Below are positions 8,245-45,794 of a stretch of DNA of 64,000 bases, one piece after another. A program made the translations under genes and the position numbers. Each line of letters starts with the position of its first letter. Position 1 is the stretch's first letter. The stretch comes from a virus, in IMG/VR virus record IMGVR_UViG_3300025151_000016; one strand, given 5' to 3'. Below the pieces are notes generated by a model. That model was not told the DNA's origin and searched no databases. It was given only the letters and a program-made list of their open reading frames with translations.

Positions 8245-8255
8245 TTTGGTTTCCT

Positions 8256-14235: not shown

Positions 14236-14241
14236 ATGTAT

Positions 14242-14270
14242 ATTATATTCCATTTAAAGAAGAAAGTAAA
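14242..14270 (-). promoter_or_regulatory. Sigma70-type promoter giving a probably leaderless mRNA
   Basis: TTTACT-N17-TATAAT, 6 nt before ATG at 14235. Confidence 0.7.
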
Positions 14271-24653: not shown

Positions 24654-24833
24654 ATGTGGGTATTGCTATGGGTACAGTTAATGGCAACACAAAATGTAAA
24701 TCACTTTCATATTGGTAATTATTCAAAAGAAGTAGACTGCCAGTCGGCTATGAGTGCCGCTGCTGTTTTAGTTACTAGTAAAAATGAAAGCGTTGCTTGC
24801 TTGTACGTAGATATTAATGACATTAGAAATTAG
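24654..24833 (+). CDS. 59-aa exported/membrane hypothetical protein (not in ORF track)
   Basis: MWVLLWVQL...YSKEVDC...SVAC; starts right after upstream stop. Confidence 0.7.
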   Translation: MWVLLWVQLMATQNVNHFHIGNYSKEVDCQSAMSAAAVLVTSKNESVACLYVDINDIRN

Positions 24834-26017
24834 ATAAAAGCTTCCAAAGTATTAGGAGCCTTTTCAATATTGTATGATCGAGTCTTGTTATCTTGCAAGA
24901 CATACTCTGCTTCGATCATTTGCAAGTCACCACCTAAAAATCTTTTTACATTTTCTGCCATGTCCATTGCTGTCGTAACAGGCACGTTCTGACATATCAT
25001 ATTTAAGTTCTTTAGTCCTCCTTGTAATATAAAGTCTTTTGGCATCTTCATTATATCCAATGCTTCGCGAGTATTGATATAACGATCTTCATCGGGGTGG
25101 CATAAGGTATGAGGGAAGTGACCAACGAAAGCACCAATACGATCTTTTCCTATCTCAGTCATCTTTCTCATTATATTTCCACCAGCCGATAACTTATCAA
25201 ACATATAGTTACACTTCTCAGAAAGCTTCTGGTGACCCCTTTCTGCCATCCAAACGCCCACATCCTTATAAGATACACCTTTATCTTCAATATAGTGTAA
25301 AGGATTAGTTGTCTTTTCAATTAGTTGAAAGAACTCAGGATGAGTAATTCCACCATGCATTTCTTCTAGTACGTATTGATAGTAAGGATTGTCCGAAGGT
25401 TTCTGTTTGCTATTCACCTGTTCAAACATTGGATCTGGTTCGTTTGTAGCAGATGAACGAATCTGATCTTCGATCTTAGTGTATGGTCGATTGTAATACG
25501 ATAAGATTGGTACAGAGTTTCCTTTCCAAAAGAAATAGAATGATCTATCTCTAACCTGGCTTAATCCGTGGAGGATTGATTTGGTTTTGTAGATGGAGAA
25601 GACGTAACCGTTTCTTCTTCCGATTTCTCTAAGTTTTGCCACAACTGGTTCTCCCATTCGACTAGCGAGCCGTGGAGCATTTTCACCCCAGAACACAGTT
25701 GGTTGGATGGATTCGAGCACATACTCGGCAGACTTGACCATCCAATCATTAGTATTACTATCACCGCTGCTAGTAGGACTAAGTGAAGAAAGCCCCGCAC
25801 AAGGGCAGACAGTATTGACCACATCCACTCTGCTAGGAGCAGTGTCCCCTTTATCAAGCAGTAGATAAGGAATATTATTATTATAATAGTTAAGAAGTTG
25901 GCTATCATTTGCTGTAAAATCCGTGTAAGAGAGGATGTATTCGGGTCGTTTCCCGAATACGTTTTCCATTGCTATTGTTTCACCTCCTATGAGAGGAACA
26001 ATACTTGCATAATTCAT
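24830..26017 (-). CDS. DNA cytosine-C5 methyltransferase-like protein
   Basis: PC (CPCAGLS), EN (GENAP), QxRxR (QVRDRSF) and C-terminal NVP motifs; motif I divergent (VPLIGG). Confidence 0.75.
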   Translation of the reverse strand: MNYASIVPLIGGETIAMENVFGKRPEYILSYTDFTANDSQLLNYYNNNIPYLLLDKGDTAPSRVDVVNTVCPCAGLSSLSPTSSGDSNTNDWMVKSAEYVLESIQPTVFWGENAPRLASRMGEPVVAKLREIGRRNGYVFSIYKTKSILHGLSQVRDRSFYFFWKGNSVPILSYYNRPYTKIEDQIRSSATNEPDPMFEQVNSKQKPSDNPYYQYVLEEMHGGITHPEFFQLIEKTTNPLHYIEDKGVSYKDVGVWMAERGHQKLSEKCNYMFDKLSAGGNIMRKMTEIGKDRIGAFVGHFPHTLCHPDEDRYINTREALDIMKMPKDFILQGGLKNLNMICQNVPVTTAMDMAENVKRFLGGDLQMIEAEYVLQDNKTRSYNIEKAPNTLEAFI

Positions 26018-26970
26018 TAATTCACCTTGTAATAATCTTTGTACCAAGTGACAAATTTTTCCACGCCATCAGCAATAGGTGTTGTTGGATTATAACCTAA
26101 TTTCTGGAGTTTAGTCGTATCTGACCATGTGGCTGGAGTATCTGCCGGATGTGCTTCACAAGGATTACGTATTGCTGTGCGACCAAGGTTCTTTTCAATA
26201 TGATCTACAAAATCAAGTAACTCTACTTGTTGTCCATATCCGATATTATATATCTCATGATAACTATCACTATCTGTGACAACTTTATCTATCACTAGGC
26301 TTATGCCATGAACAATATCTTCAACGTAAGTAAAGTCACGTTTCATATCACCAAAGTTATATAAGTCAATTGGTTTACCTTTTATAATATTATCAGTAAA
26401 CTTAAACAGCGCCATGTCAGGTCTTCCATAAGGACCATACACAGTAAAGAATCGTAAGCCAGCGGTACGTTTAATTTTTGAATGACCAAACTGACATTCG
26501 TTTACTTTTTTAGACCAGCCATAAGGGTTGTTTTGATTTTCAGGTTTATCAACTTCATTCCAAGGTAACGGCTGTCCATGCATTACACATGATGATGAAG
26601 CATATACTACAGGAATATTGAGTCCTTCGACTTCCAATGCTTCGACGATACGCTGTGTACCAGTAATGTTTGTGTCAATATAGTGCTGTGGTTCGTCCAT
26701 AGCGTGACGTGGATTTGCATATGCTGCAAGGTGTAAGACTACGTCCACGTCATCAAATAATTTCTTATCAGGATGAATGTCTTGAATATCGAGTTGTAAC
26801 GTATCAACTCCATAGTCTTCTCTTAATATTCTTGCTCTTTCTCTTTTTAGTTCTACATCGTAGTAGTCATTAAAATTATCTACTCCTACTACTTGGTGTC
26901 CTCTTGCTGCATAGTATATTGCAGAGTGGAAGCCTATCATGCCGGCTTGGCCTGTGATAAATATTTTCAT
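26017..26970 (-). CDS. NAD-dependent epimerase, UDP-glucuronate 4-epimerase-like
   Basis: TG.AG.IG, DNFNDYYD..LK..R, YASSS, YxxxK, LRFFTVYGPYGRPDMA, RDFTY. Confidence 0.88.
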   Translation of the reverse strand: MKIFITGQAGMIGFHSAIYYAARGHQVVGVDNFNDYYDVELKRERARILREDYGVDTLQLDIQDIHPDKKLFDDVDVVLHLAAYANPRHAMDEPQHYIDTNITGTQRIVEALEVEGLNIPVVYASSSCVMHGQPLPWNEVDKPENQNNPYGWSKKVNECQFGHSKIKRTAGLRFFTVYGPYGRPDMALFKFTDNIIKGKPIDLYNFGDMKRDFTYVEDIVHGISLVIDKVVTDSDSYHEIYNIGYGQQVELLDFVDHIEKNLGRTAIRNPCEAHPADTPATWSDTTKLQKLGYNPTTPIADGVEKFVTWYKDYYKVN

Positions 26971-28214
26971 ACGAAAAATTCCTCGAGTCCTTGTGGTTGG
27001 TTGCTAGTAGTGTTCAAAGCGAGATCGATAATTTCTTTCACAACCATTTCTCCATCGGAGTGTTGCTTCCAAAATTCAAACGCCATCTCTCTCCAATCAT
27101 CTCTCATCGCAGGATCATTTTTAAGTTTGACCATTTGGTCGCGGCACTCATTAAAGTTAGTATAGTCAACGCCTAGAGTGCCAGAGTTTTGACATTGACT
27201 AATTGGTTTACCTTGTACAGGATGAATTACATTATCACAAAAGTGTTTGTGAAATAACGGTACTGTACCTGAAGCTATACATTCGGCGTGGCAATTTTCT
27301 ATATTGTTACCATAGTGTTCTGCTTTTAAAAAGTATAAGTCAGAACCAAATGCTGACCGTGACATACGATCCATAGCTTCTGAGTTTATATATTGTGGAT
27401 AAAGGTATGCACCTTTGCCTTCAACTTCTTTGCCATACAAATCAGGTGTAAACTTAACTTCATTAAATTGTTTCTCAGGTCTGAAATGATTTTCTACAAT
27501 TCTACGATCTGTAGGATTGTCTGATTTATTATCACGATATAAGACTAAAGGATATTGTATAGAAGCTTCTAGTCCTTCCAACACAGTGATAAATCCTTGT
27601 TCCATCAAAGCATCTTGATGGAAGTCAATCATAACACTTGGTCCTTTCCACATAGCAGTACGGCCAATCCATCTTACCATGTTGTGTTGTTGTTCTTCAA
27701 TAGGACGCCAGTACTTTGCACGGTGTCCATCATAATCAAAGCCAAGTCCCATCTTTGTAAGTGGAGTTTCAATCTTGTTTTTTCTCATAAACTTACAGAA
27801 ATCATTTTCCATACTATGAGTCATAATAACATCTACATTTTCGCATACTTCTTTTAAGTTAGCATTACGTGCAATGGATGCTGCTTTATGATCTACGTTA
27901 ATAAACGCTTTACGAATATTAATATGTTTAAGAAACGGAATAAAATTATCCTGGCATTCTTGAGGATGACTCTTTGAAGGTACTGAATATATGATACACA
28001 AATCAAAATATTCATTAATCCAATTGGCATTTATCTCCCATTCATTTGCCATTGAGAATTCTTTTTGCTTTATATCTAATCCTTTGGCTCTACCCCATTT
28101 TTTATCAGTAGCAGATAAGATATGAGCACCCGTTACTTTTTGCATTTGTATTGCACACTGTGTAACACCGCAACCTTCAGTGCCGCGACCAAGGACAATT
28201 GCAATTCTAGTCAT
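26967..28214 (-). CDS. agt: DNA glycosyltransferase, T4 alpha-glucosyltransferase homolog
   Basis: N-terminal I.I.LGRG.EGCGVT resembles T4 AGT; WIGR...WKG; E....E.IA.GTVP.F. Confidence 0.8.
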   Translation of the reverse strand: MTRIAIVLGRGTEGCGVTQCAIQMQKVTGAHILSATDKKWGRAKGLDIKQKEFSMANEWEINANWINEYFDLCIIYSVPSKSHPQECQDNFIPFLKHINIRKAFINVDHKAASIARNANLKEVCENVDVIMTHSMENDFCKFMRKNKIETPLTKMGLGFDYDGHRAKYWRPIEEQQHNMVRWIGRTAMWKGPSVMIDFHQDALMEQGFITVLEGLEASIQYPLVLYRDNKSDNPTDRRIVENHFRPEKQFNEVKFTPDLYGKEVEGKGAYLYPQYINSEAMDRMSRSAFGSDLYFLKAEHYGNNIENCHAECIASGTVPLFHKHFCDNVIHPVQGKPISQCQNSGTLGVDYTNFNECRDQMVKLKNDPAMRDDWREMAFEFWKQHSDGEMVVKEIIDLALNTTSNQPQGLEEFFV

Positions 28215-28590
28215 TAATAAATTCCTTACATTCAATTAAAACATTATGTACGTATTTATGATCGTTTAACTTACGATTTCTAGGGGAAGGATGTGGTAAG
28301 ACAAAGTGATCTTCGAAACCAAGACGTTTCAAATAGCTCGATACCATTGAACCCCATACAACTATCTTATCATAGTTTTTAAGACTTGTACATAATAAAG
28401 TGTGATCAAAAGTCTTAAATTTAAAATCCCATTCAGGATCAAATGATAAGTTAGTGAAGGAGACATGTGTGAGGTCCAGTTGATCTAACCAGCTATGAAA
28501 TCTTTTGTACGCAGATCCCTTTGCCTTACTCACTGCTACCTTTGAAGGATTCATTCCAACAAAGATAATTCTAGACCGAAACGAATTCAT
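28207..28590 (-). CDS. Uracil-DNA glycosylase superfamily-like protein
   Basis: IFVGMNPS, FTNL, LPHPSPRN motifs. Confidence 0.7.
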   Translation of the reverse strand: MNSFRSRIIFVGMNPSKVAVSKAKGSAYKRFHSWLDQLDLTHVSFTNLSFDPEWDFKFKTFDHTLLCTSLKNYDKIVVWGSMVSSYLKRLGFEDHFVLPHPSPRNRKLNDHKYVHNVLIECKEFIND

Positions 28591-29038
28591 ATTCAATTCC
28601 AGCTTCTTCAAACATAGCTGAAGTTAAAGCAAATGATTCAACCCAATGCTCAGGTATTTCCTGATTAGGCATAACCACACGTTTAACACCAACTTGAATT
28701 ACGCCTTTAGCGCAATCAGAACAAACAGGTAAACCCCACACGTATAATGTAGATCCATCAAGTGATACACCATTATATGTAGCGTTGTATATTACATTCT
28801 GTTCTGCATGAACAACATACCTGTACTTAATTTTCTTGACAGCGTATCTATTCAAATCATCTTTTATACCACGAGGAAAGCCATTGTATCCTTGAGCAAG
28901 TACCTGCCCTTTCTTTCCTATAGCAACAGCACCAATCTTAGATGACGGGTCCTTTGACCAAGTGCTTACTTCCTTTGCTAATCCTAGGTATCTTATATCC
29001 CATTTATTTGACAAGGTGAAAGTGCCTTTCATATACAT
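28571..29038 (-). CDS. cd: dCMP deaminase
   Basis: WSKDPS..IGAV, GYNGFPRG, HAEQN, PVCSDC. Confidence 0.92.
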   Translation of the reverse strand: MYMKGTFTLSNKWDIRYLGLAKEVSTWSKDPSSKIGAVAIGKKGQVLAQGYNGFPRGIKDDLNRYAVKKIKYRYVVHAEQNVIYNATYNGVSLDGSTLYVWGLPVCSDCAKGVIQVGVKRVVMPNQEIPEHWVESFALTSAMFEEAGIEYEFVSV

Positions 29039-29690
29039 GCAAGTTTTGTACTTGCCACATAATCATACCGGGTTGAAGTCCTTCATAGCTGTGGGCATGT
29101 CGATCAATTCTGTTTATGTTATCACATAGCAATGAGAGTACATGCATTTGCCAGGCATAATCATTCTTATAACCAAACACTACATCATTCGAACGCATTT
29201 GAACTACAGCGTTAAGTACATCATCACGAATGTAATAGCTCACAGCGTTTGTACATATGAAATCATTCTTTTCGTTTTCATTGTATTCTAGCCAGACAGA
29301 AGGACGATTGTATACCATTGTAGCTCTACGTCCATCAGGATTTTCAATTAACTCATCAAGGACATGACCATACTGTTGGTGGTACTTATCAGACCAGATA
29401 AGATGACCATAGTTTGAATTAATTTCACCGTGTTTATTTGCTGCGTATTGCCAAGCTTGTGGAACACTTTCACCAATATCATTTACGTTTGTGGATTGAC
29501 TTTCATACCAATCTAATTCTTCTTGAATATAATCATAGTTTGGCGAACCAAAGATAGCAGGCTCATCAGCAACAAACGATGCACCAATCAGTTCAATAGT
29601 TTTTTGACCGGTTCTATCGATTGTAAATGCTTCATCATTGAGTTCACCAATAAAGAACTGGCGAATATCATGTACACTATGTAGTTTCAT
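29004..29690 (-). CDS. gp42: dCMP hydroxymethylase (T4 gp42-like, thymidylate synthase fold)
   Basis: INSNYG, DFICTN, MRSNDVVFGYKNDYAW (Asp at the dCMP-specificity position), NLHVYERHF. Confidence 0.9.
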   Translation of the reverse strand: MKLHSVHDIRQFFIGELNDEAFTIDRTGQKTIELIGASFVADEPAIFGSPNYDYIQEELDWYESQSTNVNDIGESVPQAWQYAANKHGEINSNYGHLIWSDKYHQQYGHVLDELIENPDGRRATMVYNRPSVWLEYNENEKNDFICTNAVSYYIRDDVLNAVVQMRSNDVVFGYKNDYAWQMHVLSLLCDNINRIDRHAHSYEGLQPGMIMWQVQNLHVYERHFHLVK

Positions 29691-30600: not shown

Positions 30601-30878
30601 TATCTGTAATCCCGAATGTATACGTCCCAATGCGTTGCATTTTCTTTTGGCGTATCTTTTGCCCAACGATGTAAACGTGGACCACGTGGTCTGCACCATA
30701 CACCTTGTGTAGGACGATCACGATTAATATCAAAGTATGGGGATTTGCGATAGTTCTTGATGAAGCTGTTGCGATAAGCAAGTAGTTCTTTAAGTCCAGC
30801 AATAGCAGGATCATCAAGAGTTTTAACCGTAAAACGATAATTTTCGGATGTACGATTTTTATAAGTTACATAAGCCAT
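30600..30878 (-). CDS. Hypothetical protein
   Basis: RGPR...A..WDVY pattern; coupled to neighbours. Confidence 0.65.
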   Translation of the reverse strand: MAYVTYKNRTSENYRFTVKTLDDPAIAGLKELLAYRNSFIKNYRKSPYFDINRDRPTQGVWCRPRGPRLHRWAKDTPKENATHWDVYIRDYR

Positions 30879-31163: not shown

Positions 31164-31637
31164 TTAGAATTTTGTTAAGAATTGTGCTATTCTTCCTACA
31201 AATGGTAACAGCATAAGTGCCATCATAAGATTCATACCAGTATGTGCCATAGCTATTCGTAAGGTATCACCTTTTGGCCAGCCATCAGATACAAAGATAC
31301 CGGCTAACCATATGGTTCCAGTAGTTCCAATGTTAGCTCCTAACACAGCAGCAACTGCGGCTGGTAGCGGTAAGGCGCCTGAAGCAACTAACGCAATGAT
31401 TGCAGTAGTTGATAATGAAGACGATTGCCACAAGAGTGTCATTACTATTCCACCAATAAACATGTATATCGGATTACCTAAAAAGAATTGTAAGTGGTCC
31501 ATGTTACCCATTGACTTCATACCACCTGAGAATGTTTTAAGTCCAATGTAAAATATTACTAAGCCAACTAAAGCAGTTATTACGGGATTTCCTAGATCCA
31601 TTTTCTTTACCTTCTTCCAAAGTTTTTTATTCGACAT
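31164..31637 (-). CDS. Na/Pi cotransporter family protein (single repeat)
   Basis: QSSS motif, GANIGTT, 4-5 TM segments. Confidence 0.85.
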   Translation of the reverse strand: MSNKKLWKKVKKMDLGNPVITALVGLVIFYIGLKTFSGGMKSMGNMDHLQFFLGNPIYMFIGGIVMTLLWQSSSLSTTAIIALVASGALPLPAAVAAVLGANIGTTGTIWLAGIFVSDGWPKGDTLRIAMAHTGMNLMMALMLLPFVGRIAQFLTKF

Positions 31638-32076: not shown

Positions 32077-32105
32077 ATTATATCACCTTTTGCATAGTAA
32101 GTAAA
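32077..32105 (-). promoter_or_regulatory. Sigma70-type promoter
   Basis: TTTACT-N17-TATAAT overlapping the GAPDH 3' end. Confidence 0.7.
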
Positions 32106-33064
32106 CCTTTCATGTAGTTTGCAACATCAGCCATTCTACAACTAAATGCCCATTCGTTATCATACCAGGCTAATACTCTAACTAAATTATTATTTGATAC
32201 TCGTGTTTGTTCTGGTGCAAAAATACAACTTTCTTTTGTTGTATTAAAATCACTGCTTACGAGTGGCAATGGCTCGTAGCCAATAATGCCAGACATATCA
32301 TTACGTGTGCTTTCATATACATGTTTATTAACAATGCTTTCAGTAACTTGTTCTTTAACTTGTACTGTTAAATCAATGCAACTTACATTTGGCGTAGGTA
32401 CTCTTATTGCTCCGCCCATTATTTTACCATTGACAGGAGGATAAACTTCTCCTAGTGCCTTTGTTGCTCCTGTGCTTGTTGGAATCATATTGACAGCACC
32501 TGCTCTTGCTCTATAAGGATCTTTGTGCCTTTTATCTATAGTGCTTTGGTCTCCGGTGTAACTATGTATTGTTGTCATTTGTCCTGCTACAATACCACAG
32601 GTTTCATCTAATATTTTAACAAGTGGCGCTAAACAGTTTGTTGTACAACTTGCATTGCTAACAACGTGTTCGTGCTTCTGTATGTCATTATGGTTCACAC
32701 CATATACTACTGTGCGTTTACATTCTTTAGCAGGCGCACTTATGACAACTTTCTTTGCTCCATTTATTGTATGATGCATGCATTCAACACCGTTATTGTA
32801 AGCACCCGTACATTCTAATACAACATCAACATTATGCCACTTTAGTTTTTTTATATCTCTTTCTTCTGTCCATACCAAAGGTTCATGTATAGGACCTGTG
32901 TAACGCCCATGCACACTATCATACTTTAACAAGTGAAGGTTTACTTCTTCTCCACCTGAAGCATTGATTTGAACTACATTCATATCATTACGTTGGCTCA
33001 TTATGTGTCTTGCAACACAACGTCCTATACGACCGAAGCCATTGATACCTATATTAAGTTTCAT
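32078..33064 (-). CDS. gap: Glyceraldehyde-3-phosphate dehydrogenase, type I
   Basis: GINGFGRIGR, LKYDSVHG, ASCTTNCLAP, TTIHSYTGDQ, RVPTPNVS, WYDNEW. Confidence 0.92.
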   Translation of the reverse strand: MKLNIGINGFGRIGRCVARHIMSQRNDMNVVQINASGGEEVNLHLLKYDSVHGRYTGPIHEPLVWTEERDIKKLKWHNVDVVLECTGAYNNGVECMHHTINGAKKVVISAPAKECKRTVVYGVNHNDIQKHEHVVSNASCTTNCLAPLVKILDETCGIVAGQMTTIHSYTGDQSTIDKRHKDPYRARAGAVNMIPTSTGATKALGEVYPPVNGKIMGGAIRVPTPNVSCIDLTVQVKEQVTESIVNKHVYESTRNDMSGIIGYEPLPLVSSDFNTTKESCIFAPEQTRVSNNNLVRVLAWYDNEWAFSCRMADVANYMKGLLTMQKVI

Positions 33065-36287: not shown

Positions 36288-36439
36288 TTCGCTAAGCTCT
36301 TACGTAATTCAGATCCTTCAAAGTTATTCATGCTTGCATACTTTTTTAGTACTTCGTTTTCAGGATCTAAACGCTTCAACTCACGAGCAAGTTGGTCAAT
36401 CATTTCGTAATCCATTTTTGTTTTAATATGCTTACCCAT
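36284..36439 (-). CDS. 51-aa hypothetical protein (not in ORF track)
   Basis: MGKHIKTKMDYEMIDQLARELKRLDPENEVLKKY...; TAATG and ATGA overlaps. Confidence 0.65.
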   Translation of the reverse strand: MGKHIKTKMDYEMIDQLARELKRLDPENEVLKKYASMNNFEGSELRKSLAK

Positions 36440-37485
36440 TATTCTGCCTCAACAATAGTATCTGGATCTACCAGTGCTTTATGACCAATTGAATACTGCT
36501 TCTTAATAAACTCGCTGAACGCTGTTGTTTCAAAGATAGGATCCCAAAACTCTTTTTCTAGAGTTTGATCATATCGTACTTTACCAAACTCTTGGCCATC
36601 AGGACCATTAGCTTGTTGATACCAACCAGCCGAAGGTTTAGTAACATATCCACCAGCAAGAGCTACGTCAAGAAGACCGCTGTAACTTTGAACTCCACCT
36701 TCCCAAGATACGGAGATAGGAATCTTTGATTTTTCTTTTACATAACGAGACTTATCAACATTAATTACAAAGTCATAGCCTGTAATCTCTGTACCCTTTT
36801 TATTTTGCCTACGTCCAATGATCCAAATGTTATCGGCTGAGTAGTAGATACCTGTTCCACCACCTACGATATCTTTTGGAAATAATCCTATTTCTTTATA
36901 AGTATGATTAACTGCTATTAAAGGAATATCCTTCATAGTCAAGTAAGGTGTTACCATACGGAACAAACCTTTGAGTGCTTTTGCTCTTGACATATCAGCC
37001 ACAGACTTTTCATTCAATGCATCTTCAAGTTCTTTCTTCGATGCAAGGTTACCAATACTATCAATAACAATAACAACTCGATCATTGCGATCAAGTTCTT
37101 CGAGTTGACCAACAAGATCAAACTTTAGTTCTTCTACATTTGCAATAGGTGTATGCAATACACGCTGTACATCAATATCAAATTGTTCAAAGTAAGATTG
37201 TGGTGAACCAAACTCAGAATCATAAAATAGCATGACTGCATCAGGATACTTTTTCATGTATGCGCTAGCCATGAGTAAACCAAAAGAAGTCTTAAAGTGT
37301 TTTGACGGACCAGCCAATACTGTAAGGCCTGGAGTTAACCCACCGTCAACTGAACCAGATAAAGCAACGTTTACCATTGGTACATCTGTTGGAACCATAT
37401 CTTTTTCAGTAAAGAACTTTGATTCGCCAAGAACTTCGGTAGACTTAATCTTCGAGTTCTTTTTTAATTTATCCATAATTGACAT
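36439..37485 (-). CDS. uvsX: RecA-like recombinase
   Basis: AGPSKHFKT, YDSEFG, DSIGNLASKKE, GGGTGIYYSAD. Confidence 0.96.
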   Translation of the reverse strand: MSIMDKLKKNSKIKSTEVLGESKFFTEKDMVPTDVPMVNVALSGSVDGGLTPGLTVLAGPSKHFKTSFGLLMASAYMKKYPDAVMLFYDSEFGSPQSYFEQFDIDVQRVLHTPIANVEELKFDLVGQLEELDRNDRVVIVIDSIGNLASKKELEDALNEKSVADMSRAKALKGLFRMVTPYLTMKDIPLIAVNHTYKEIGLFPKDIVGGGTGIYYSADNIWIIGRRQNKKGTEITGYDFVINVDKSRYVKEKSKIPISVSWEGGVQSYSGLLDVALAGGYVTKPSAGWYQQANGPDGQEFGKVRYDQTLEKEFWDPIFETTAFSEFIKKQYSIGHKALVDPDTIVEAE

Positions 37486-38272
37486 TTTGTTCTCTTTCTC
37501 TATCGTCTAATTCGTAACATTTGCGATACTCATTGTTTATTCTAATACATTTTTCAATAATTGTAAACCCCTTATCGAAATTTACTAGAGCTGCAGTGTC
37601 CTTTGGAAAGCATGCGCCACCATATCCTTGCTTACCATCTGGCCCAGGAACTTTAGTATGCGAATGTCCAATACGTGAATCAGTACCAATAGCTTTTACG
37701 ACCTTATTAAATGTTTGTCCTTGACGAGCAATTGAATCATATAACTGATTGAAGAATGTAACCTTTAATGCTAAGAAAGAATTTATGCCATACTTTACAA
37801 AGCTGGCTTCTTTCGGAGTCATCTTATATACAGGACATGGTGTACATAGGCTATACTCATCATAAATCTTTTCTAAGAAATTAGTGTTTACTTCGTTTCC
37901 ACCAAAGACATGAAACTCTGGACGAATAAAATCTTCGTTAGCAGCTTTTTCTGTAAGAAACTCTGGATTGTAAATGAGATTATATTTTTCAAACTTATCA
38001 AAGAAAGTAGGAACGACGGTTGACTTTATTACGATAGGAATATTAGGACCAAGCGCAAGAACAACTTCAGTTAAAATAGAATCGTCAATAGATCCATCTT
38101 CACCAAACGGCGTAGGCACACAAACAAATGCAACACTGTACTTTGTAATATCAAGTTCATGTACACTATTTCCATACTTTGGATCTACAATATACTTTTG
38201 TAACTTAGGATGATTAAATCCATAGTCTACAGCTTTACCAACAAACCCATGGCCTACAATTATCATCTTCAT
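37469..38272 (-). CDS. ugd: UDP-glucose 6-dehydrogenase (short form)
   Basis: G.GFVG, VCVPTP, IKSTV, NPEFL, KY..N.FLA.KV.FFN, GYGGACFPKD. Confidence 0.88.
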   Translation of the reverse strand: MKMIIVGHGFVGKAVDYGFNHPKLQKYIVDPKYGNSVHELDITKYSVAFVCVPTPFGEDGSIDDSILTEVVLALGPNIPIVIKSTVVPTFFDKFEKYNLIYNPEFLTEKAANEDFIRPEFHVFGGNEVNTNFLEKIYDEYSLCTPCPVYKMTPKEASFVKYGINSFLALKVTFFNQLYDSIARQGQTFNKVVKAIGTDSRIGHSHTKVPGPDGKQGYGGACFPKDTAALVNFDKGFTIIEKCIRINNEYRKCYELDDREREQNVNYG

Positions 38273-38273
38273 A

Positions 38274-38702
38274 TTACGCCCCTTCATTTTGTGCCACTCG
38301 TCTACGTAGATCACTACTACTAAATCTATGTTCACGCTTATTAAAATATAAACGAATACCTTTACGACGACATACTTCTTTACCAGTAAAATCTTTGTTC
38401 TTGTATTCTTCACCCATGATTTTTACATTTATGTCAAACATTTCTAATATGTCAATCACGTCATTTTCACCTTGATAACAAACTATCTCATCAACGTATT
38501 TTACACCAGCCAATTGAACATAACGTTCTACCAATGTTTGTACTGGTGCATTCTTATCATCTCTGTCAAGAGAAGGATCTACCTGTAGACCACATATAAG
38601 ATAATCACAAATAGTTTTAGCTTCACGTAACATTGCTACATGACCAGCATGTAATAAATCAAATGTAGATAATGTTAAGCCAATTGTTTTAGTAGATTCC
38701 AT
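38274..38702 (-). CDS. TagD-like (glycerol-3-phosphate) cytidylyltransferase
   Basis: STFDLLHAGH, YVDEI, R.H.FSSS. Confidence 0.85.
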   Translation of the reverse strand: MESTKTIGLTLSTFDLLHAGHVAMLREAKTICDYLICGLQVDPSLDRDDKNAPVQTLVERYVQLAGVKYVDEIVCYQGENDVIDILEMFDINVKIMGEEYKNKDFTGKEVCRRKGIRLYFNKREHRFSSSDLRRRVAQNEGA

Positions 38703-39379
38703 GTTTCTTCCCATGTTTTAACTTGATGTACGCCTTGTCCAGCTGAGGCAAGAGCCCAAGATAGTTTATAGTCATTGCCACCCGGTTCCATTTTGTCACC
38801 AAAGAATTCAATACGATCATTTTCTAAATCAAAGTCACGTGTTATTTGTGACTTGTCACAGCCAGGTAATGTAATATCGATTCCAGTATCACCTGCAACT
38901 TCAAATAATATATGTGGGTATCTTTCTTGCATTGTAGTTGCAATCTGTACGCGTTCACTTTGATGATAATCCCATTCTTTGTACATAGCTCTTTCTTCAA
39001 GCGTATTGTTTCTTCCTAGGATACTAAAGTTTACAAGACCAGGACGTTGATCAAAATGCATACCAGTTTTGCAGGGAAACTTTGATTTGAGTATATAATC
39101 TCTTAGATCAAACTCTACGTCTAAAGGTAGTGCAAAAATTCCAGAATGCAAGTTCTTATCCTGTCGCCAAACATCGTTTCCTGAACAATTATAAACCTTT
39201 TCACATAGATTGTAAATAGTAGATCCTATTTGTTCTAATGTTTTTTTCCTATCTGAACCAGTAACTAGATAGCACGTATTGTTCGTAGCAAAATCCTCGA
39301 ACCATTTTGCAAATACAGAATCTATTTTCATTCTGCTTTCTGTTAAAGTACCATCCACATCAAATATAAACTTACGCAT
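38675..39379 (-). CDS. HAD IIB phosphomannomutase-like enzyme
   Basis: FDVDGTLT, VTGSD, R.GL.NFS..GR, FFGDK..PGGNDY. Confidence 0.85.
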   Translation of the reverse strand: MRKFIFDVDGTLTESRMKIDSVFAKWFEDFATNNTCYLVTGSDRKKTLEQIGSTIYNLCEKVYNCSGNDVWRQDKNLHSGIFALPLDVEFDLRDYILKSKFPCKTGMHFDQRPGLVNFSILGRNNTLEERAMYKEWDYHQSERVQIATTMQERYPHILFEVAGDTGIDITLPGCDKSQITRDFDLENDRIEFFGDKMEPGGNDYKLSWALASAGQGVHQVKTWEETWNLLKQLA

Positions 39380-39713
39380 AACCAACTGTCTCTCTCTGTA
39401 TATCGTTATGATTAAACTCTGCCCAATACAATTCAAAGGCAACACCATCTTTTAAACATTCAAATTGATGATAAACACCGGGCTTGACTTTTGTGTATTC
39501 ACCTGGTTCTAGTATTGTTTCATCAACCAAGTCATAATCATTTTGCCATACACGAATAAGCATACGACCAGACTCAACATAGAATCCATTCCATTTAAAC
39601 TCGTGTAGATGTTTGGAGCAAACACCACCTTTATTCATTTCAATTCTATGAAACTCAAGAACACCATTCATTTCAATCTGTTCTGTAAGTCCCCATACTT
39701 TACCTGCTTTCAT
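39372..39713 (-). CDS. Cupin, sugar-isomerase-like
   Basis: K.WG, CS.H.H..K...FYV.SG, V.PG.YH.F. Confidence 0.75.
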   Translation of the reverse strand: MKAGKVWGLTEQIEMNGVLEFHRIEMNKGGVCSKHLHEFKWNGFYVESGRMLIRVWQNDYDLVDETILEPGEYTKVKPGVYHQFECLKDGVAFELYWAEFNHNDIQRETVGYA

Positions 39714-40371
39714 GCCATTTCCTTGCATCTTCTGGAGTGTTAATTTCTATTCCATTCCATTCTACACTAGTTACGCCGATTTGTACACCATTTTTTAACC
39801 ATCGTAGTTGTTCTAGTTGTTCGATCTCTTCTTCTTTTTCTATTGGAAGTCTTGGATACAACTCTAACATATTTCTTTTATAACCATATACACCTAGGTG
39901 CCAATCTCCGTATCCTGTTATGCCTCTCCCAAACCAAAGTGCTTGATCTCCAGCTCTAATCATTTTTACTGAGTGAGGATCATTCTGCTTATCTTTTGGC
40001 ATAGGTGTCCATACGGTTGTCACCTCATAATTTTTTAAATGCCAATGAACATTGTTTATTATTTCTGGTGTAACGTCTGGCATGTCACCTTGTACATTTA
40101 TATATTGATCATAGTCTAGTTTTTCTAAGGCAGCTCCAGCACACCGCTCGGTTCCATTACTGAATTCTCTGTTGTCATATATCACGTGCTTGAGTGGAAC
40201 TGCATGTGCAACAGATCTATGATCAGTGAGTACATACGTATCAAATCCAGACTTAACGCAAGCATCGTAAACTCTACGAATCATTGTCGTTCCACCAAGA
40301 TTACATATAGGCTTACCTGGAAATCTACTTGATTCGTATCGAGCAGGAATTAATATCGCTGTGGTCGTCAA
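39700..40371 (-). CDS. kdsB: CMP-Kdo synthetase
   Basis: IPARY.SSRFPGKP, NGTERC, NVQGD.P, H.G.YGY, EQLEQLRWL, INTPED. Confidence 0.9.
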   Translation of the reverse strand: MTTTAILIPARYESSRFPGKPICNLGGTTMIRRVYDACVKSGFDTYVLTDHRSVAHAVPLKHVIYDNREFSNGTERCAGAALEKLDYDQYINVQGDMPDVTPEIINNVHWHLKNYEVTTVWTPMPKDKQNDPHSVKMIRAGDQALWFGRGITGYGDWHLGVYGYKRNMLELYPRLPIEKEEEIEQLEQLRWLKNGVQIGVTSVEWNGIEINTPEDARKWHESR

Positions 40372-41552
40372 ATTAAACTCTCTAAAATTTCTAATACCTG
40401 TTTACTATTATCTTCTACACCAATGTCAATAGCACTCTTTACGCATGTTCTTGTAAAATCTAAGCTGAATCTGTTGCCGTTGCTATCCATCCCTGTGTTT
40501 ATTAAATATACGTTACATACTTCATTCGTTATTTTATCCATAAGCAAATCACTATAAACTTTAACTGATCTTGGCATAAACGGTGATCCGTAACAAGGAG
40601 AGAATATTTTCTTTATCTCATCGCTGCCAGCTTCTGTTCCAGGCATTTGACTTGTGTAACCAGTTTCAAAGAAGCGTCTAACCGTATTACCACTTATTTT
40701 ACTTACAGGTGGAAACCGACCTGTTGCATCCATAGTTAAGAAGAATATATTATCAGGATGACCGAACTGATCCTGATCAGTCCAGGCATTGCTAACACAA
40801 TCTATAGAATAACTTAATCTTGCGTTCGCAGCTCCAGGATTTTCTACTACAAGAGTATCTCGTTTCTTTGCTTCTTCAACAGCATTAAAAATAGTTGGGT
40901 GAGTCTCTTGAGTTAATCCTTCTGATTTAGCATAACAACCGGTTTCTATAATACGAATGCCTTTATCGTTCCATGACACTTCATCATCAGATATAAGACG
41001 AAACTCTGGATCACTACTTAACGTTGTTTTACCTGTGCCGCTTAATCCAAACATAAGGTTTGTTTTATCTTCATAAGTAAAAGCTGCACAATGCATAGGA
41101 AGAATGTTTTGATCTGGTAGTTCAAATCCTAAGATACTAAACACACCTTTTTTAATCTCACCAAGAAACGTAGTACCACCAATAAGCATTGTCTTTTCAT
41201 CTAAGTGCACAGCAATAGTAGGTTGGCATTTTATTTCTGTATTATGAATGATAGTCCAGTCTGCGCAATGTTCGTACGGATTATCTACAACAGTAAACAT
41301 ATTACGTACAAACTGTGCATGTCTATCATCATTTGTTTCTACACGAAAACAAAAACCTGATGTATAGAAAACAAGATTATGCTCTGTATCATACTCATTT
41401 ATATCTTCAAAGAACTCCCAGTAATTGAGATCTTTACCGATCTTGTTATACTTAGGTCGTGTTAGATCTAAATGCTTAGTTCTATTTCCAAAGTGTACTT
41501 TATTTTCAGGAGAACGACCGGTTGGTTCAGTTGTTATTTCTATATTGGGCAT
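40368..41552 (-). CDS. pckA: PEP carboxykinase (ATP), compact form
   Basis: TGRSP, GEIKKG, PMHC, FGLSGTGKTTLS, DDE, GCYAK, FSPCYG.PF. Confidence 0.88.
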   Translation of the reverse strand: MPNIEITTEPTGRSPENKVHFGNRTKHLDLTRPKYNKIGKDLNYWEFFEDINEYDTEHNLVFYTSGFCFRVETNDDRHAQFVRNMFTVVDNPYEHCADWTIIHNTEIKCQPTIAVHLDEKTMLIGGTTFLGEIKKGVFSILGFELPDQNILPMHCAAFTYEDKTNLMFGLSGTGKTTLSSDPEFRLISDDEVSWNDKGIRIIETGCYAKSEGLTQETHPTIFNAVEEAKKRDTLVVENPGAANARLSYSIDCVSNAWTDQDQFGHPDNIFFLTMDATGRFPPVSKISGNTVRRFFETGYTSQMPGTEAGSDEIKKIFSPCYGSPFMPRSVKVYSDLLMDKITNEVCNVYLINTGMDSNGNRFSLDFTRTCVKSAIDIGVEDNSKQVLEILESLI

Positions 41553-42321
41553 AACTAAATTCCATTATGTTTTCTACTAAGTTGTCAAAATCAGAAAGCT
41601 TTAACATGTTTGGTCCATCAGATGGTGCACTGTCTGGATCTGCATGCACTTCTATAAAAAAGCTAGAAATGCCGAGAGCAGCACCAGCCCGAGCAAGATG
41701 AGGCACGTACTTGCGATTTCCACCAGTCGAGGTTCCTTGACTACCTGGTGTTTGTACTGAATGAGTAATATCGTAAACAAATCTATCACCAAGATCAGCA
41801 AGTAAATCATACATGCCAGTGAAATCATTAACAAGACGTCCGTAACCAAAGCTTGTTCCTCTTTCTGTTATCCAGACTTCTTCGGCTCTTTTAGTCTTAG
41901 ATAATATTCCTTTTACGTCCCATGGTGCCATAAACTGGCCTTTTTTAATATTTATGATTTTTTCAGTTTTACATGCTTCTACAATCAAATCAGTTTGCCT
42001 GCATAGGAAAGCTGGTATCTGTAATACATCAACAGCACTATTACTTCCTTGATAAGCTAAAGATCTAATTTGATCTACAGTATGAACATCTGTAAGAATC
42101 TTTAGACCCGATATCTCATTTTTAAGATCTATAAATGCATGATTAGTTGGATATAAACCCAATCCTCTTTCACCATCTATCGATGTTCTATTAGCTTTAT
42201 CAAAGCTAGCTTTAAAGAAATATTCCACACCATACTTATCGCAAACTTGTTTACAATGTTCTGCTATTTCTCCTGATCTGCCTATACTCTCATGTTGGCA
42301 GGGTCCTGCAATAATTCTCAT
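41527..42321 (-). CDS. kdsA: Kdo-8-phosphate synthase
   Basis: IAGPC, KASFDKANRTS, QIPAFLCRQTDL, KKGQF, TERGTSFGY, SDGPN. Confidence 0.93.
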   Translation of the reverse strand: MRIIAGPCQHESIGRSGEIAEHCKQVCDKYGVEYFFKASFDKANRTSIDGERGLGLYPTNHAFIDLKNEISGLKILTDVHTVDQIRSLAYQGSNSAVDVLQIPAFLCRQTDLIVEACKTEKIINIKKGQFMAPWDVKGILSKTKRAEEVWITERGTSFGYGRLVNDFTGMYDLLADLGDRFVYDITHSVQTPGSQGTSTGGNRKYVPHLARAGAALGISSFFIEVHADPDSAPSDGPNMLKLSDFDNLVENIMEFSYAQYRNNN

Positions 42322-43254
42322 CTATCCATTCCTATAAACATATTCTAATGCACGATCGGCTTCTACTTCCATAGGCCGGTTTTCGTACCAGTTACCAGTT
42401 TCACGATCAAACTCTTTACATAGCATAGCAATTTCAGATGTTGTGATAGGATAACTACGTTTGACCGCGTTACCTGCAATTGCTACCATGATTTGGTACA
42501 TCTTACTGTACCATCCAGTGTTACTTATAGTCATATAATCTGACGCTAATTTCTTTGGCCAGAACGGGCAATCGTGGTAACTTGACCACACAACATTATG
42601 ATTATCCATTTGTGATTTACGATGTTCAATTACTTGCTTTGCCCATTCAGGTGGTAATCTATCTATGAAGTTATTAGAGTGCTTTTTTTCTTCATATGGA
42701 TACTTAGCCATAAGTTCTTCTGGATCTATAGGATAACCTGTGTGATTACTAAATATGAAATTGTAAGCACCAATGTAACTACCAGGGATGTAATACATCC
42801 GAGACAAGTCCTTAGTCTGTTTATCTCCGATGTCTCCGAGATCTGTGTTAAGCGCGTACCAGAAATGTCGAATTCGTACTCCATCAACTGATCCTGTAAG
42901 CGGAAAAACAAGACGGAACTTCGGTAGATCACGAGTGGAACTAGCAGTGCTATAACAAATAAATTTATGTTGGCCAAAACGATCCAGAAGCTCATTCTCT
43001 AGATCTCCTTTAAATTCATGATCATCAACGTCAACAGCCGCCCAAGCTCCCCAGCTAAGTACATTTCTGTTGGCCCGAGTAGTTCCGTCTTCGTACGTAG
43101 CCGGCGATATAAGTTGTGCATCTTTCTTTCCTTTTAAAGGTTGTTCCGCTAATTTATATAGGAACTTTTCAAAGCTTGGCCATTCTTCAAAGTCAAACCT
43201 TTTATGAGTCTTGTTGTCAAACTGACTATTAAATACTGTGACAGTATAATACAT
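42322..43254 (-). CDS. Putative AEP-superfamily primase-like protein
   Basis: AVDVDD, YST.S, KFRLVFPL, D....D.SR.YY.P; coupled to gp43. Confidence 0.6.
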   Translation of the reverse strand: MYYTVTVFNSQFDNKTHKRFDFEEWPSFEKFLYKLAEQPLKGKKDAQLISPATYEDGTTRANRNVLSWGAWAAVDVDDHEFKGDLENELLDRFGQHKFICYSTASSTRDLPKFRLVFPLTGSVDGVRIRHFWYALNTDLGDIGDKQTKDLSRMYYIPGSYIGAYNFIFSNHTGYPIDPEELMAKYPYEEKKHSNNFIDRLPPEWAKQVIEHRKSQMDNHNVVWSSYHDCPFWPKKLASDYMTISNTGWYSKMYQIMVAIAGNAVKRSYPITTSEIAMLCKEFDRETGNWYENRPMEVEADRALEYVYRNG

Positions 43255-45794
43255 TATGCAAAGAAATCCTCCAAAGTAGCAACCGGCTCAGCTGACCAAC
43301 CCACAGCATCGAGGATTGGGCGAAGCGGTTCAATAAAAGTCTTATCAAACATTATACCATAGTCTATATAGCTTTGTAAACCAATTTCTTTCGGTAAAAT
43401 GCCAGGAAATGAAATAACATTTTCTTTGATAGGATTAGGAGTTTTAAGATAACAAAACTTAATTTTTTCACCGTTCTTAATCGTTTCATATTTACGTTCA
43501 AGCGAGTTTTGCTTGATAGCATGATTATATAGCAATGAACCACGTACATGTATTGGGCAGCCTTTGCTATATATGTTCTTACGGTCTTTCCATTTTGCTA
43601 TCTCAGTAACTCCACGAGGAAATGAGATGTCTTCTGGTGCGAGTGATGAGAACTCATTACGGAAATTACGGATAAATTCTTGTACGTCAGATTGAGAACC
43701 TTCAATAATAACTTTGAATATTTCTTTGAATTTATTACGAACAACTTCTGGTGTAGATGACTTGATAGCTTCAATACCCATCATCTTTAATTTTGGTGTA
43801 GCATACTGTACACCTTCGGAGTTATGTACGTTGAGGATATATCGTTTCTTTGCTGTCCATATACCACGATCGGCAATAACTTCACGAGCCATTTCCATAC
43901 GAGGAGTGTAGCCATTCATTACATGAAAGAATGCAGAATAAGAATCTTTTAAAACGTTTTCAAAATGATCATTACAGATTTTATCAAGGAACTTAACAGG
44001 ATCTTTAGGATTGAAGTTCTTTACAAATGGACTCATATTGATATAAACTGAATCGGTATCGATTGCAACCACATAATCTTTCTTGGTGCCAAGCATCTTA
44101 TTCATTTCGGAGTTGATTGCTTCTTCGGCCCAGCGGATAACTGTTTGACCAGTAAGTGTAACTGATTCAGCCAGAGCATTATCAAAGTACTTAAAGTATT
44201 TGTTGGCCAATGCACCATACAATGAGTTAAGCAGGATTTTGATTGCCATCTGATTATTTTCAAGCTGGTTAATCGTAGATTCCAAAGCTTTGTCTTTTGT
44301 TTGCTCATACATCGATTGTGTTTTAAGCATTTTCTTTTTAATAACTGTACGTTCAGAATAGTAGTCAACAATCAATTCAGGTATGATACCTTGAGACTTT
44401 TTAGTAAATGGTACACCCGAAGCACATACAGCATAGTCTTCGCATACTTGCTTGTGACGATCATGATCCAAATAATAATCAGGTCCTTGTGGAAACCTGT
44501 ATGTGTAGTCTTTATATAGATTTTCTGGAGATATGTTTTGCTGTACAATAATATTAGGATATAGAGAATTCAAATCAAAAGATACAACCCAATCATGTGC
44601 ACCAACCTGAGGATCTTTTACATAACCACCAGCAATAGACTTACGTTCATTATCAGGATTACCAAAGACTGCATATGGTACAGACTTAATTTGATTTACT
44701 GGTGAAACAATGTTTTTACTAAGAAGCCTGCGATAGATAATAGATTCCCATATGTTTGTTACACCAAACACAGCGTTTAAATTAACGCCACCTTTATATG
44801 CCATCGTTAAGGCAAGAGATATAAGCCCCATCTTCTGATCAATACGATCCACAAGCTGAACATCTTTAATATTATAGTCAATAAACTTTTGGTGATCTTC
44901 TTTATATAACGTATATAAATTACCATGTTCTTCATATGACAACTTACGTTCACCAAGAACTACGTGGCCAATATGATCGAGTTTATACGATTCTTGGTTG
45001 CCATATGAGTATCCAAACTTTTGAAATAACTCGAGATAATCTGCTGTTTGAATGCCAACTAATTCAAAAGTCAATAGTTCACGTTGCATTTTTCTGACAG
45101 TACGTTCGTTAACCATGTTCCAAGGAGATAACCGACGTGCAGCTTCTTCGGATCCAATCATGCGAATACGATTTACGAGATATGGAATATCAAAGAAATC
45201 AGAGTTCCAGCCAGTGATAACATCAGGATAGTTCTTTGTCCAATAACCAAGAAACTTGGCGAGCATATCTTCTTCTGAGTTACAATGGTGATACTGAATC
45301 ATATCACCTTTCATATCTACCTGTGTTTTTTCATAGTCATAAGTATCGAGTCCCCATACCTGATAGATAGAGGATTTACTTGATTTCAATGCAATAGAAA
45401 TGATAGGATACGCAGCTTCTTCCGGTGTAGGGAAGCCATCATCAGATGCAACCTCAATATCGAAGTTAACTACGTTGATGTGATTAACATCGAACTTAAT
45501 GTCATCTGGATATAGATCTGTAATAAATTGGTGAATGTAGTTTGTAGTACCAAAGATCTTAAAGTTCTCGGTATCTTTATATGTTTCAATAAAATCTTTT
45601 GCTTCAGACATTTTGCTGAAGTTGATTTCTTTTAAGTCATGACCTTCAAAGGATTTGTACTTACCTTTTTCTTTGACGGGTACAAATAACTTAGGAGCAA
45701 ACTTATGTTTCTTTGAAACTGGTGTACCGTTATCTGTATATCCACGGTACAGGATAGAATTGCCATAACGATTGATAGACGTATAGAATGCCAA
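43254..45794 (-). CDS. gp43: Family B DNA polymerase
   Basis: [25 protein letters not shown]...NSLYG, DTDS, KKRY; TTG start with GGAGG RBS. Confidence 0.97.

Follow-up and report, generated by a model that had tools for sequence, protein, structure and literature searches.

Gene row between gp43 and uvsX

The sequence analyzed here, referred to as the window, is a 64,000-nucleotide stretch of the IMG/VR virus record IMGVR_UViG_3300025151_000016, and this report concerns a row of seven sugar-nucleotide and associated genes that lies in it between gp43 (DNA polymerase) and uvsX (recombinase). The source is an uncultured marine T4-like myovirus, whose gp43 shares 54.5% identity with the polymerase of Phage C48C1 (Kyanoviridae) and approximately 46% with those of cyanomyophages. 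The row includes kdsA and kdsB, two genes for the synthesis of CMP-activated 3-deoxy-D-manno-octulosonate (Kdo), a sugar of the bacterial envelope, together with genes for a compact phosphoenolpyruvate (PEP) carboxykinase (PEPCK) and a small cupin. These four genes constitute an accessory cassette, which is separate from the module of the phage for hydroxymethylcytosine (hmC) in DNA. Gene identities were drawn from Pfam, NCBIfam, PHROG, and PDB sequence searches. All genes of the gp43-uvsX region are on the minus strand and overlap or abut one another. In the direction from gp43 to uvsX, they are as follows:

43254..45794, minus strand: DNA polymerase gp43, upstream flank (PF00136 and PF03104)
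42322..43254, minus strand: 310-residue primase-like open reading frame (ORF; phrog_9765 'DNA primase', 162 bits; no Pfam match)
41527..42321, minus strand: KdsA, Kdo-8-phosphate synthase (NF003543, 313 bits, cut-off 242)
40368..41552, minus strand: compact ATP-dependent PEPCK, 394 residues (PF01293, 299 bits)
39700..40371, minus strand: KdsB, CMP-Kdo synthetase (PF02348, CTP_transf_3, 95 bits)
39372..39728, minus strand: 118-residue metal cupin (Cupin_2)
38675..39379, minus strand: HAD-IIB phosphomutase of the phosphomannomutase (PMM)/alpha-phosphoglucomutase (alpha-PGM) type (PF03332, 79 bits; start mended from 39448)
38274..38714, minus strand: RfaE-domain-II/TagD-like nucleotidyltransferase (PF01467)
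37469..38272, minus strand: short UDP-glucose/GDP-mannose-dehydrogenase-like protein (Ugd), approximately 267 residues (PF03721 and PF00984 only)
36439..37485, minus strand: UvsX recombinase, downstream flank (PF21134 and PF00154)

All seven genes named in a first-pass annotation of the window were present with strong family matches and in the same orientation as gp43 and uvsX. The gene order holds, with the addition that the primase-like ORF (42322-43254) stands between gp43 and kdsA. This ORF has a homolog in C48C1 and in most related loci and belongs to the conserved backbone of the clade rather than to the sugar enzymes. The kdsA gene abuts the ORF upstream of it, and overlaps of 26 nt (pck/kdsA), 4 nt (kdsB/pck), and 17 nt (uvsX/ugd) were found at further junctions. 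Two of the listed ORFs were longer than the likely genes because of upstream read-through into the neighboring gene. The likely true start of the PMM-like gene is 39379 (MRKFIFDVDGT), where the listed ORF reached 39448, and that of ugd is 38272 or 38287 (MKMIIVGHGFVG), where the listed ORF spanned 37469-38413. Co-transcription of the row is only suggested, on the strength of the overlaps. The frequency of promoter-like sites in the region from 36.0 to 46.5 kb was not above that in shuffled sequences, and no convincing internal terminator was found there. A 3.2-kb contig that is approximately 91% identical covers ugd to pck in a sequencing run guessed to be RNA, and it is unreadable as a transcript. 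A DNA-level search of cultured phages returned a sole match, a 68%-identical nucleotidyltransferase gene in Vibrio phages, the context of which was uninformative.

KdsA and KdsB

Family and PDB matches agreed with the identities given at first to KdsA, PckA, and KdsB. KdsA scored above the curated equivalog cut-off of NF003543, its best PDB match was 3fs2 (E 9e-78), and all 40 PDB matches at E <= 1e-20 were Kdo-8-phosphate synthases. Cys8 of the protein lies in an AGPCQHES motif (MRIIAGPCQHES), and this cysteine in the N-terminal AGPC motif presumably places the enzyme in the metal-dependent type. Relatives of KdsA were found on 143 viral contigs, and the closest protein to it is an alphaproteobacterial enzyme. 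For KdsB, the best NCBIfam matches were all KdsB models, at scores below the cut-off (164 versus 193), and 13 of 13 PDB matches were KdsB or KpsU, the best being E. coli KpsU (1gq9); the aligned motifs are PARYxSSRxPGKP, QGD, and EQLR.

The kdsB gene is dispensable in a near-identical strain. Contig L004, which is 96% identical, lacks exactly kdsB owing to a clean indel in which positions 39714-40369 of the window (656 nt) are swapped for 45 nt, and a similar joint, from 39713 to 40420, was seen in one low-depth (4x) contig of another marine run. In L004/L005, kdsA, the primase-like ORF, the polymerase, and the nucleotidyltransferase show 100% protein identity, and PEPCK and PMM show only 89-90%, so that the region is a mosaic.

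By sequence, the phage KdsA and KdsB are ordinary members of the bacterial CMP-Kdo pathway (KdsD, KdsA, KdsC, KdsB), and the E. coli kps loci likewise place an isomerase and a synthetase paralog (KpsF/KpsU) in a glycan cluster. The phage differs from that pathway in having no SIS/CBS isomerase and no KdsC, as had been noted at the outset and as was found again among the scanned ORFs, where no SIS-domain or KdsC-like protein occurred. In the place expected for the isomerase is the 118-residue cupin, a PEPCK gene stands within the row, no transferase is encoded, and the carrier is a T4-like phage of the lytic type. Viral kdsA and kdsB were already known from the cyanophage S-SCSM2R (PMC12801897) and from a Tara environmental viral genome (PMC5332604), and they were read as auxiliary genes for the cell wall or lipopolysaccharide (LPS). 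S-SCSM2R has no homolog of the window cupin or of the compact PEPCK, and its kdsA and kdsB are in a region of glycosyltransferase and photosynthesis genes and not in the gp43-uvsX interval. Neither the cupin partnership nor the PEPCK is described in those two papers.

The hmC-glycosylation module

A set of DNA-modification genes of the T4 type was found at 24.8-29.7 kb, 9-13 kb downstream of the row, and also includes a weak ORF of the uracil-DNA glycosylase (UDG) superfamily. Its members are:

29004..29690, minus strand: gp42 dCMP hydroxymethylase ortholog (PDB 1b49, E 4e-73)
28571..29038, minus strand: dCMP deaminase, dcd (PF00383)
26967..28235, minus strand: DNA glycosyltransferase like T4 alpha-glucosyltransferase (AGT), 422 residues (PF11440, 116 bits)
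26017..26970, minus strand: nucleotide-sugar epimerase/dehydratase of the short-chain dehydrogenase/reductase (SDR) type (PF01370, 138 bits)
24830..26047, minus strand: C5-cytosine-methyltransferase-like protein, C5MT (PF00145, 45 bits)

The gp42 protein keeps SND (the D169 equivalent, and so not the 5-hydroxy type) and NDYAW (T4 D179). The residue criteria that separate the hydroxymethyl from the 5-hydroxy type were taken from a preprint on RB69 and DLP3 (bioRxiv 10.1101/2025.06.16.659550). Because the equivalents of D179 and D169 are found together with a DNA glycosyltransferase of PF11440, as in glycosylation of the T4 type, the phage would almost certainly make hmC and glycosylate it. The T4 system of gp42 and alpha-glucosyltransferase shares the gp43-uvsX slot, and the window phage likewise has a gp42 ortholog and an AGT-like transferase. 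Like the window phage, RB69 brings its own sugar-nucleotide enzymes (bioRxiv 10.1101/2025.06.16.659550). The arabinosyl-5-hydroxycytosine pathway of RB69 and DLP3 differs from the present case in the type of gp42, and the SIS isomerase, HAD phosphatase, and kinase-nucleotidyltransferase of RB69 have as counterparts here the cupin, PMM, TagD/RfaE-II-like protein, short Ugd, and SDR epimerase.

Relatives of the AGT-like protein were found in 135 viral loci, and the AGT-bearing clade shows a conserved row, (o117)-nucleotidyltransferase-gp42-dcd-(udg-like)-AGT-epimerase-ugd-C5MT-uvsX. The order epimerase-ugd-C5MT-uvsX recurs in relatives, with the C5-methyltransferase-like gene kept beside ugd and uvsX. 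The module is contiguous in most relatives and is split in the window, where uvsX, gp41, thyX, the glyceraldehyde-3-phosphate dehydrogenase (GAPDH) gene, mazG, and others stand between ugd and gp42. The first-pass annotation's view of the gp43-uvsX interval as a site of DNA-modification genes is thus borne out, since relatives hold gp42-dcd-AGT-epimerase-ugd-C5MT there. Its placing of the TagD-like gene and ugd in a Kdo operon is not, because the conserved clade row assigns the nucleotidyltransferase, the epimerase, and the short Ugd to the hmC module, of which they are core genes in relatives. As far as the searched literature shows, the placing of these three genes in the hmC module is new; rfaE and ugd genes as such were known in pelagimyophages (PMC7029224). 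Sorting the sugar genes in this way narrows the search for the sugar that marine T4-like phages put on their DNA.

The nucleotidyltransferase matched TIGR00125 with 48 bits (cut-off 27.7), contains LHAGH, and stayed below the equivalog cut-offs of TIGR02199 (77 versus 181.5 bits) and TIGR01518 (63 versus 165). The best NCBIfam match of the epimerase was the HldD ADP-heptose 6-epimerase, with 109 bits and below the cut-off. Ugd keeps GxGxxG and GGACFPKD with the catalytic Cys, but it ends at about the equivalent of residue 321 of 444 in 3vtf, so that of three domains the C-terminal UDP/GDP-sugar-binding one (PF03720) is absent. That the short Ugd oxidizes the sugar after its transfer to DNA would be a guess.

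The HAD protein had been proposed as a substitute for KdsC, a capless HAD of approximately 180 residues. It is instead a mutase of the PMM/alpha-PGM type and a HAD-IIB protein: PF03332 matched well above its cut-off of 22.4 bits, the motifs DVDGT and GGNDY are present, and all significant PDB matches of natural function were phosphomannomutases or alpha-PGM. The pmm gene occurs in 3 of 10 complete pol-to-uvsX intervals, always with the nucleotidyltransferase, and only one of these three has kdsA. It is missing from most kdsA loci and often directly follows the polymerase gene. Nothing supports a KdsC role, and a phosphatase activity would be possible as far as the sequence tells.

A 222-residue ORF at 30031-30699, just upstream of o117-gp42, had no Pfam, PHROG, or NCBIfam match. 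A 40%-identical homolog was found beside gp42 in a genome of an unrelated lineage (G001, locus L245), and the ORF could be an unrecognized component of the hmC pathway.

The cassette and the module across relatives

For the comparison, 80 loci around KdsA relatives, 80 around AGT-like relatives, 67 around relatives of the compact PEPCK, and 80 metagenome loci around distant cupins were fetched, and the window proteins were mapped onto all of them. The upstream region is covered in 36 AGT-centered loci. Of these, 28 have the nucleotidyltransferase, which is directly upstream of gp42 in most AGT-centered loci; the cupin was found in 13, kdsA in 8, PEPCK and PMM in 6 each, and kdsB in 5. These are nested sets, as all kdsA loci have the cupin and all cupin loci have the nucleotidyltransferase. 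Of the 10 complete pol-to-uvsX intervals, one contains kdsA, three the cupin, and seven the nucleotidyltransferase. The Kdo genes are therefore variable inserts upstream of the nucleotidyltransferase in the AGT clade. The complete genome G533 (146.6 kb, with terminal repeats) has the gp42/AGT module and no gene of the KdsA family (DAHP_synth_1). The reverse was found in a second phage lineage, in which cupin-kdsA-kdsB occurs with no nucleotidyltransferase or AGT nearby. Its member G001 (91% complete) carries the trio and no PF11440 protein; in G006, the positive control, this search did recover AGT. Among the neighboring families of this lineage, Pfam recognized neither KdsC or KdsD nor a glycosyltransferase. 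The Kdo-transferase families PF04413, PF05159, and PF06258 (WaaA-, KpsC/S-, and ELM1/GtrOC1-type) were absent from all five large viral records with kdsA that were searched.

These patterns bear on the proposal, made in the first-pass annotation, that the CMP-ulosonate is destined for DNA. It was to be judged by profiling kdsA/kdsB against gp42/AGT, with independent distributions, and Kdo confined to LPS or virion glycan, speaking against it. The two-way dissociation from AGT largely shows such independence and, with no Kdo-transferase family found in the five records, tells against the DNA version. In that version, CMP-Kdo would be the donor for hypermodifying hmC in phage DNA, by way of the AGT-like enzyme or an unrecognized transferase. 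It has in its favor that kdsA-(kdsB)-cupin runs into nucleotidyltransferase-gp42-dcd-AGT-epimerase-ugd-C5MT in the pol-uvsX interval of several loci (L020, L022, L069, L106-112), that the phage makes hmC and has the AGT-like transferase, that G001 also has a gp42 ortholog, and that no host-type Kdo transferase is encoded. AGT-family enzymes are known to use UDP-glucose, however, kdsA is present in a single complete interval and absent from G533, G001 has the trio with no AGT-family gene, kdsB is lost in the near-identical strain, and in a bacterium, described below, this trio is part of an LPS-type cluster that includes glycosyltransferases. We regard the DNA version as improbable. It is a similarly long shot that cassette-bearing phages carry an acidic sugar, Kdo possibly with a uronic acid made via the truncated Ugd, on the hmC of the virion; if true, this would amount to DNA hypermodification of a new class.

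The compact PEP carboxykinase

The motifs TGRSP, GEIKKG, MHC, GLSGTGKTT, DDE, NARLSY, and NTG..R..TR are kept in the phage PEPCK and are invariant in 12 members of its family, and the substrate, metal, and nucleotide motifs align with E. coli PckA (1aq2). With 304 bits, the protein is below every NCBIfam cut-off (369-815) because it is short: it has not the full two-domain architecture of approximately 530-540 residues. Relative to 1aq2 (approximately 540 residues), it lacks approximately 78 N-terminal and approximately 60 C-terminal residues and is shorter by approximately 145 residues overall, the N-terminal domain being reduced and the C-terminal tail missing. Among the relatives listed, the best 120, one for each 90%-identity cluster, all have lengths of 394-416 residues. 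Their family is large and occurs in marine metagenomes and on viral contigs, and no member of it was found in cultured phages. No paper on a phage PEPCK as an auxiliary gene was found in a literature search, and the compact family is new as far as the searched literature shows. The 394-residue protein would show how far this enzyme can be pared down.

In the first-pass annotation, PEPCK was the row's own supply of PEP. This is reasonable for the gene order of the window, but PEPCK is not dedicated to Kdo: 19 of the 67 viral loci have it beside kdsA/kdsB, 20 between gp46 and gp45, 12 within 2.5 kb of a GAPDH gene, and 16 elsewhere. A more probable role is that of a general auxiliary gene for gluconeogenesis, recruited beside KdsA in some cases. 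The 12 loci with GAPDH suggest a gluconeogenic auxiliary pair, and the window itself encodes a possible partner:

32078..33064, minus strand: type I GAPDH (TIGR01534, 376 bits, above cut-off)

In its stronger form, this explanation holds that PEPCK and the phage GAPDH would turn carbon of the tricarboxylic acid cycle into triose and pentose phosphates for nucleotides, that PEPCK is not dedicated to KdsA, and that its position reflects a shared insertion hot spot. It is further favored by the PEPCK-bearing records G008-G010, which have no AGT. Against it, the PEPCK gene stands beside kds genes in four or more gene orders and on different backbones, namely PCK-kdsA, kdsA-PCK-kdsB, kdsA-kdsB-PCK-cupin, and cupin-kdsA-kdsB-PCK (L223-227), a pattern that speaks for some functional coupling. 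PEPCK could serve in both roles, and the stronger form is a serious candidate that falls a little short of an even chance. PEPCK and GAPDH together point to gluconeogenic rewiring by abundant ocean phages.

The 118-residue cupin

The invariant residues of the cupin are K10, W12, G13, S38, H40, H42, H87, E99, Y101, D109, and R112. Its AlphaFold2 model has a pLDDT of 93, and Foldseek searches with the model returned generic small cupins (quercetinase, KdgF, CapF, phosphomannose isomerase (PMI), and lyxose isomerase), so the fold does not fix the substrate. The best PDB sequence match was the 113-residue PMI of Thermococcus (7zvm, E 0.03), and some atlas relatives weakly matched PF01050 or PF07385. 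The small archaeal cupin PMIs (7zvm, 7zvy) and the cupin D-lyxose isomerases share with it the size (approximately 110 residues), the cupin fold, and a His-rich metal site. Relative to these proteins, the identity is approximately 20%, the window cupin has its own invariant set (K10, W12, G13, N47, E99, Y101, D109, R112), and its genomic partnership is a different one, with kdsA/kdsB. In a full HMMER search with a limit of E <= 0.001, 1191 clusters (50% identity) were found through their representatives. Clusters in the atlas consist of 90-100% Uroviricota, and the family is almost purely viral, with none in cultured phages. In cells it is rare (2 of 401 Alphaproteobacteria). Cellular loci were retrieved via one narrow pattern, which gave only 7 loci, so that the cellular occurrence of the cupin is under-sampled. 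Fused forms, mostly with methyltransferase domains, gave no functional clue.

The cupin is the top co-occurring family of viral kdsA, present in 58 of 81 kdsA loci as compared with 52 for kdsB, and many viral loci hold KdsA and the cupin alone. In the AGT-centered loci, it was found in 8 of 8 with kdsA versus 5 of 28 with none, and the association also holds in loci found through the cupin itself. In a tree of 136 cupins, the clade of the window cupin (96% support), with kdsA next door in most rows, is apart from a second clade (99% support). In one subclade of the latter, the next genes after the cupin encode a KdsB/NeuA-family cytidylyltransferase, a radical-SAM/SPASM enzyme, and a class-III aminotransferase, and in two cases kdsA lies no more than 3.3 kb away. 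The second clade also contains a small branch with adjacent kdsA and a large subclade of mixed context, with five members beside GDP-mannose 4,6-dehydratase (GMD). Kdo-type neighbors thus recur in three separate subclades.

Metagenome loci of the distant-cupin type just described (L271, L278, L290-292, L305, L308-310, L320, L322), with the cytidylyltransferase, radical-SAM/SPASM, and aminotransferase genes after the cupin, look like an amino-ulosonic acid pathway in the manner of Shewanella Kdo8N. These low-GC marine contigs are probably viral.

A cellular instance was found in the alphaproteobacterial metagenome-assembled genome (MAG) G011, on a 731-kb contig (L089, G011:C9, approximately 406-419 kb), where a putative glycosyltransferase gene of the ELM1/GtrOC1 type lies directly upstream of kdsA-kdsB-cupin. 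The cupin is 65% identical to that of the window, and the kdsA of this operon is the only one in G011. Searches of G011 returned no KdsD (only CBS-domain matches), no GmhA, and no clear RfaE-II; of the 121 genomes of its order that were sampled, 108 have KdsD. The protein of the ELM1 type is a candidate for a Kdo transferase. A GT8-like gene and a methyltransferase gene were also seen near the operon.

Kdo synthesis is essential in Gram-negative bacteria, and to our knowledge its first enzyme is known only as a SIS-domain protein. The search of the five large viral records with kdsA also returned no SIS domain. As the most faithful partner of viral kdsA and as part of a kdsA-kdsB-cupin operon in a KdsD-less MAG, the cupin is a candidate sugar-phosphate aldose-ketose isomerase, and more precisely a candidate non-SIS arabinose-5-phosphate isomerase. 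The suggestion that it replaces KdsD, already made in the first-pass annotation, gains comparative support from these two observations and stops short of proof. The claim is that the cupin works like KdsD and not that it belongs to the same family, since in place of the SIS domain (with a CBS pair) of KdsD, KpsF, and GutQ it has Cupin_2 only. PMI-type isomerases yield the 'left-hand' C2 configuration, as in arabinose-5-phosphate, and by analogy with the C2 stereochemistry of the PMIs and lyxose isomerases such an activity would be chemically reasonable. We hold the isomerase function to be a tentative assignment that comes close to an even chance, and somewhat less confidently propose that the cupin founds a class of arabinose-5-phosphate isomerases that have no SIS domain and are widespread among the viruses of the ocean. 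Nothing relevant on an arabinose-5-phosphate isomerase of the cupin type came up in a literature search, and as far as the searched literature shows, both the cupin-KdsA partnership and the possible non-SIS isomerase role are new. A small cupin doing the work of KdsD would be a new enzyme class, the annotation of the pathway would change, and genomes seemingly devoid of KdsD may have the activity. A role as a KdgF- or NanQ-like Kdo anomerase was ranked lower, as many loci have KdsA and the cupin with no KdsB.

Proposed role of the cassette

The reading adopted here is that the gp43-uvsX interval combines an accessory cassette that boosts Kdo for a host-made envelope glycan with genes of the hmC module; the case for and against it is about evenly balanced. 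The compact PEPCK would convert oxaloacetate to PEP, and the cupin, most likely as a PMI-like metal isomerase in place of a SIS-type KdsD, would convert ribulose-5-phosphate to arabinose-5-phosphate. KdsA would condense the two products to Kdo-8-phosphate, a host phosphatase (KdsC) would presumably dephosphorylate it, and KdsB would make CMP-Kdo. Because the phage encodes no transferase, CMP-Kdo would presumably go to WaaA or capsule enzymes of the host, which would build envelope glycans with it in the infected cell, and not to DNA. As the second component, the nucleotidyltransferase and the truncated Ugd would belong to the core of the hmC module, and the PMM-type mutase would be a variable gene that comes only with the nucleotidyltransferase. 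The cassette would thus occupy a plastic slot adjoining, and partly interleaved with, the hmC-glycosylation genes.

Several points weigh against this reading. The steps of the pathway are read from sequence, and no KdsC equivalent was found among the scanned ORFs. The cassette is among early replication and DNA-modification genes and not in a surface-glycan island. Both Kdo-bearing lineages examined have gp42, so that independence of the kds genes from hmC itself is not established. The kdsA-centered loci are biased towards kdsA by their mode of retrieval. The bacterial case is suggestive only, because it is a single MAG of unknown completeness and 13 of the 121 genomes of the order have no KdsD match anyway. 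In addition, five loci (L118, L120-122, L137) have the cupin directly upstream of the nucleotidyltransferase and no kdsA, and the cupin-PMM-nucleotidyltransferase-Ugd order of the window is colinear with the pathway PMI-PMM-pyrophosphorylase-dehydrogenase.

Both of these last observations would be explained if the cupin were a PMI or a sedoheptulose-7-phosphate isomerase feeding PMM and the nucleotidyltransferase, a function that we consider possible although rather unlikely. Extended to the whole row, the four genes would form one colinear pathway feeding AGT-like glycosylation of hmC, with the cupin as PMI or as a GmhA substitute and kdsA, kdsB, and pck as mere neighbors. One version would lead from fructose-6-phosphate via mannose-6-phosphate and mannose-1-phosphate to a nucleoside-diphosphate mannose and mannuronate, and another, which would involve the HldD-like epimerase, from sedoheptulose-7-phosphate to ADP-heptose. 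In most loci of the T4-like clade, the cupin gene directly precedes that of the nucleotidyltransferase, phosphomannose and lyxose isomerases are the best leads for the cupin in the PDB and Pfam, the best matches of the nucleotidyltransferase and the epimerase are RfaE domain II and HldD, and distant-branch cupins stand beside GMD. The GMD-adjacent cupins are, however, in the different, well-separated clade; the cupin accompanies kdsA in two settings that have neither nucleotidyltransferase nor PMM, namely the second phage lineage and G011; 15 of 28 nucleotidyltransferase loci have no cupin; and Ugd has no nucleotide-sugar-binding domain. The pathway as a whole is therefore judged unlikely, and the Kdo cassette for host-made envelope glycans is preferred.

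Other features of the window

Two ORFs at 11129-12514 and 7564-8265 matched 'cytidyltransferase' PHROGs (phrog_3041/395, 238 and 209 bits; phrog_764 weakly) and had no Pfam match. Nearby are DUF6267 (13006-14253) and DUF932 (16157-17122) proteins, which recur beside the compact PEPCK in other loci. A 157-residue ORF at 31164-31637 showed a partial match to a Na/Pi symporter model (NF037997) that narrowly passed the cut-off, is conserved with 90% identity in L053/L054, and may be a fragmentary or minimal auxiliary gene for phosphate transport.

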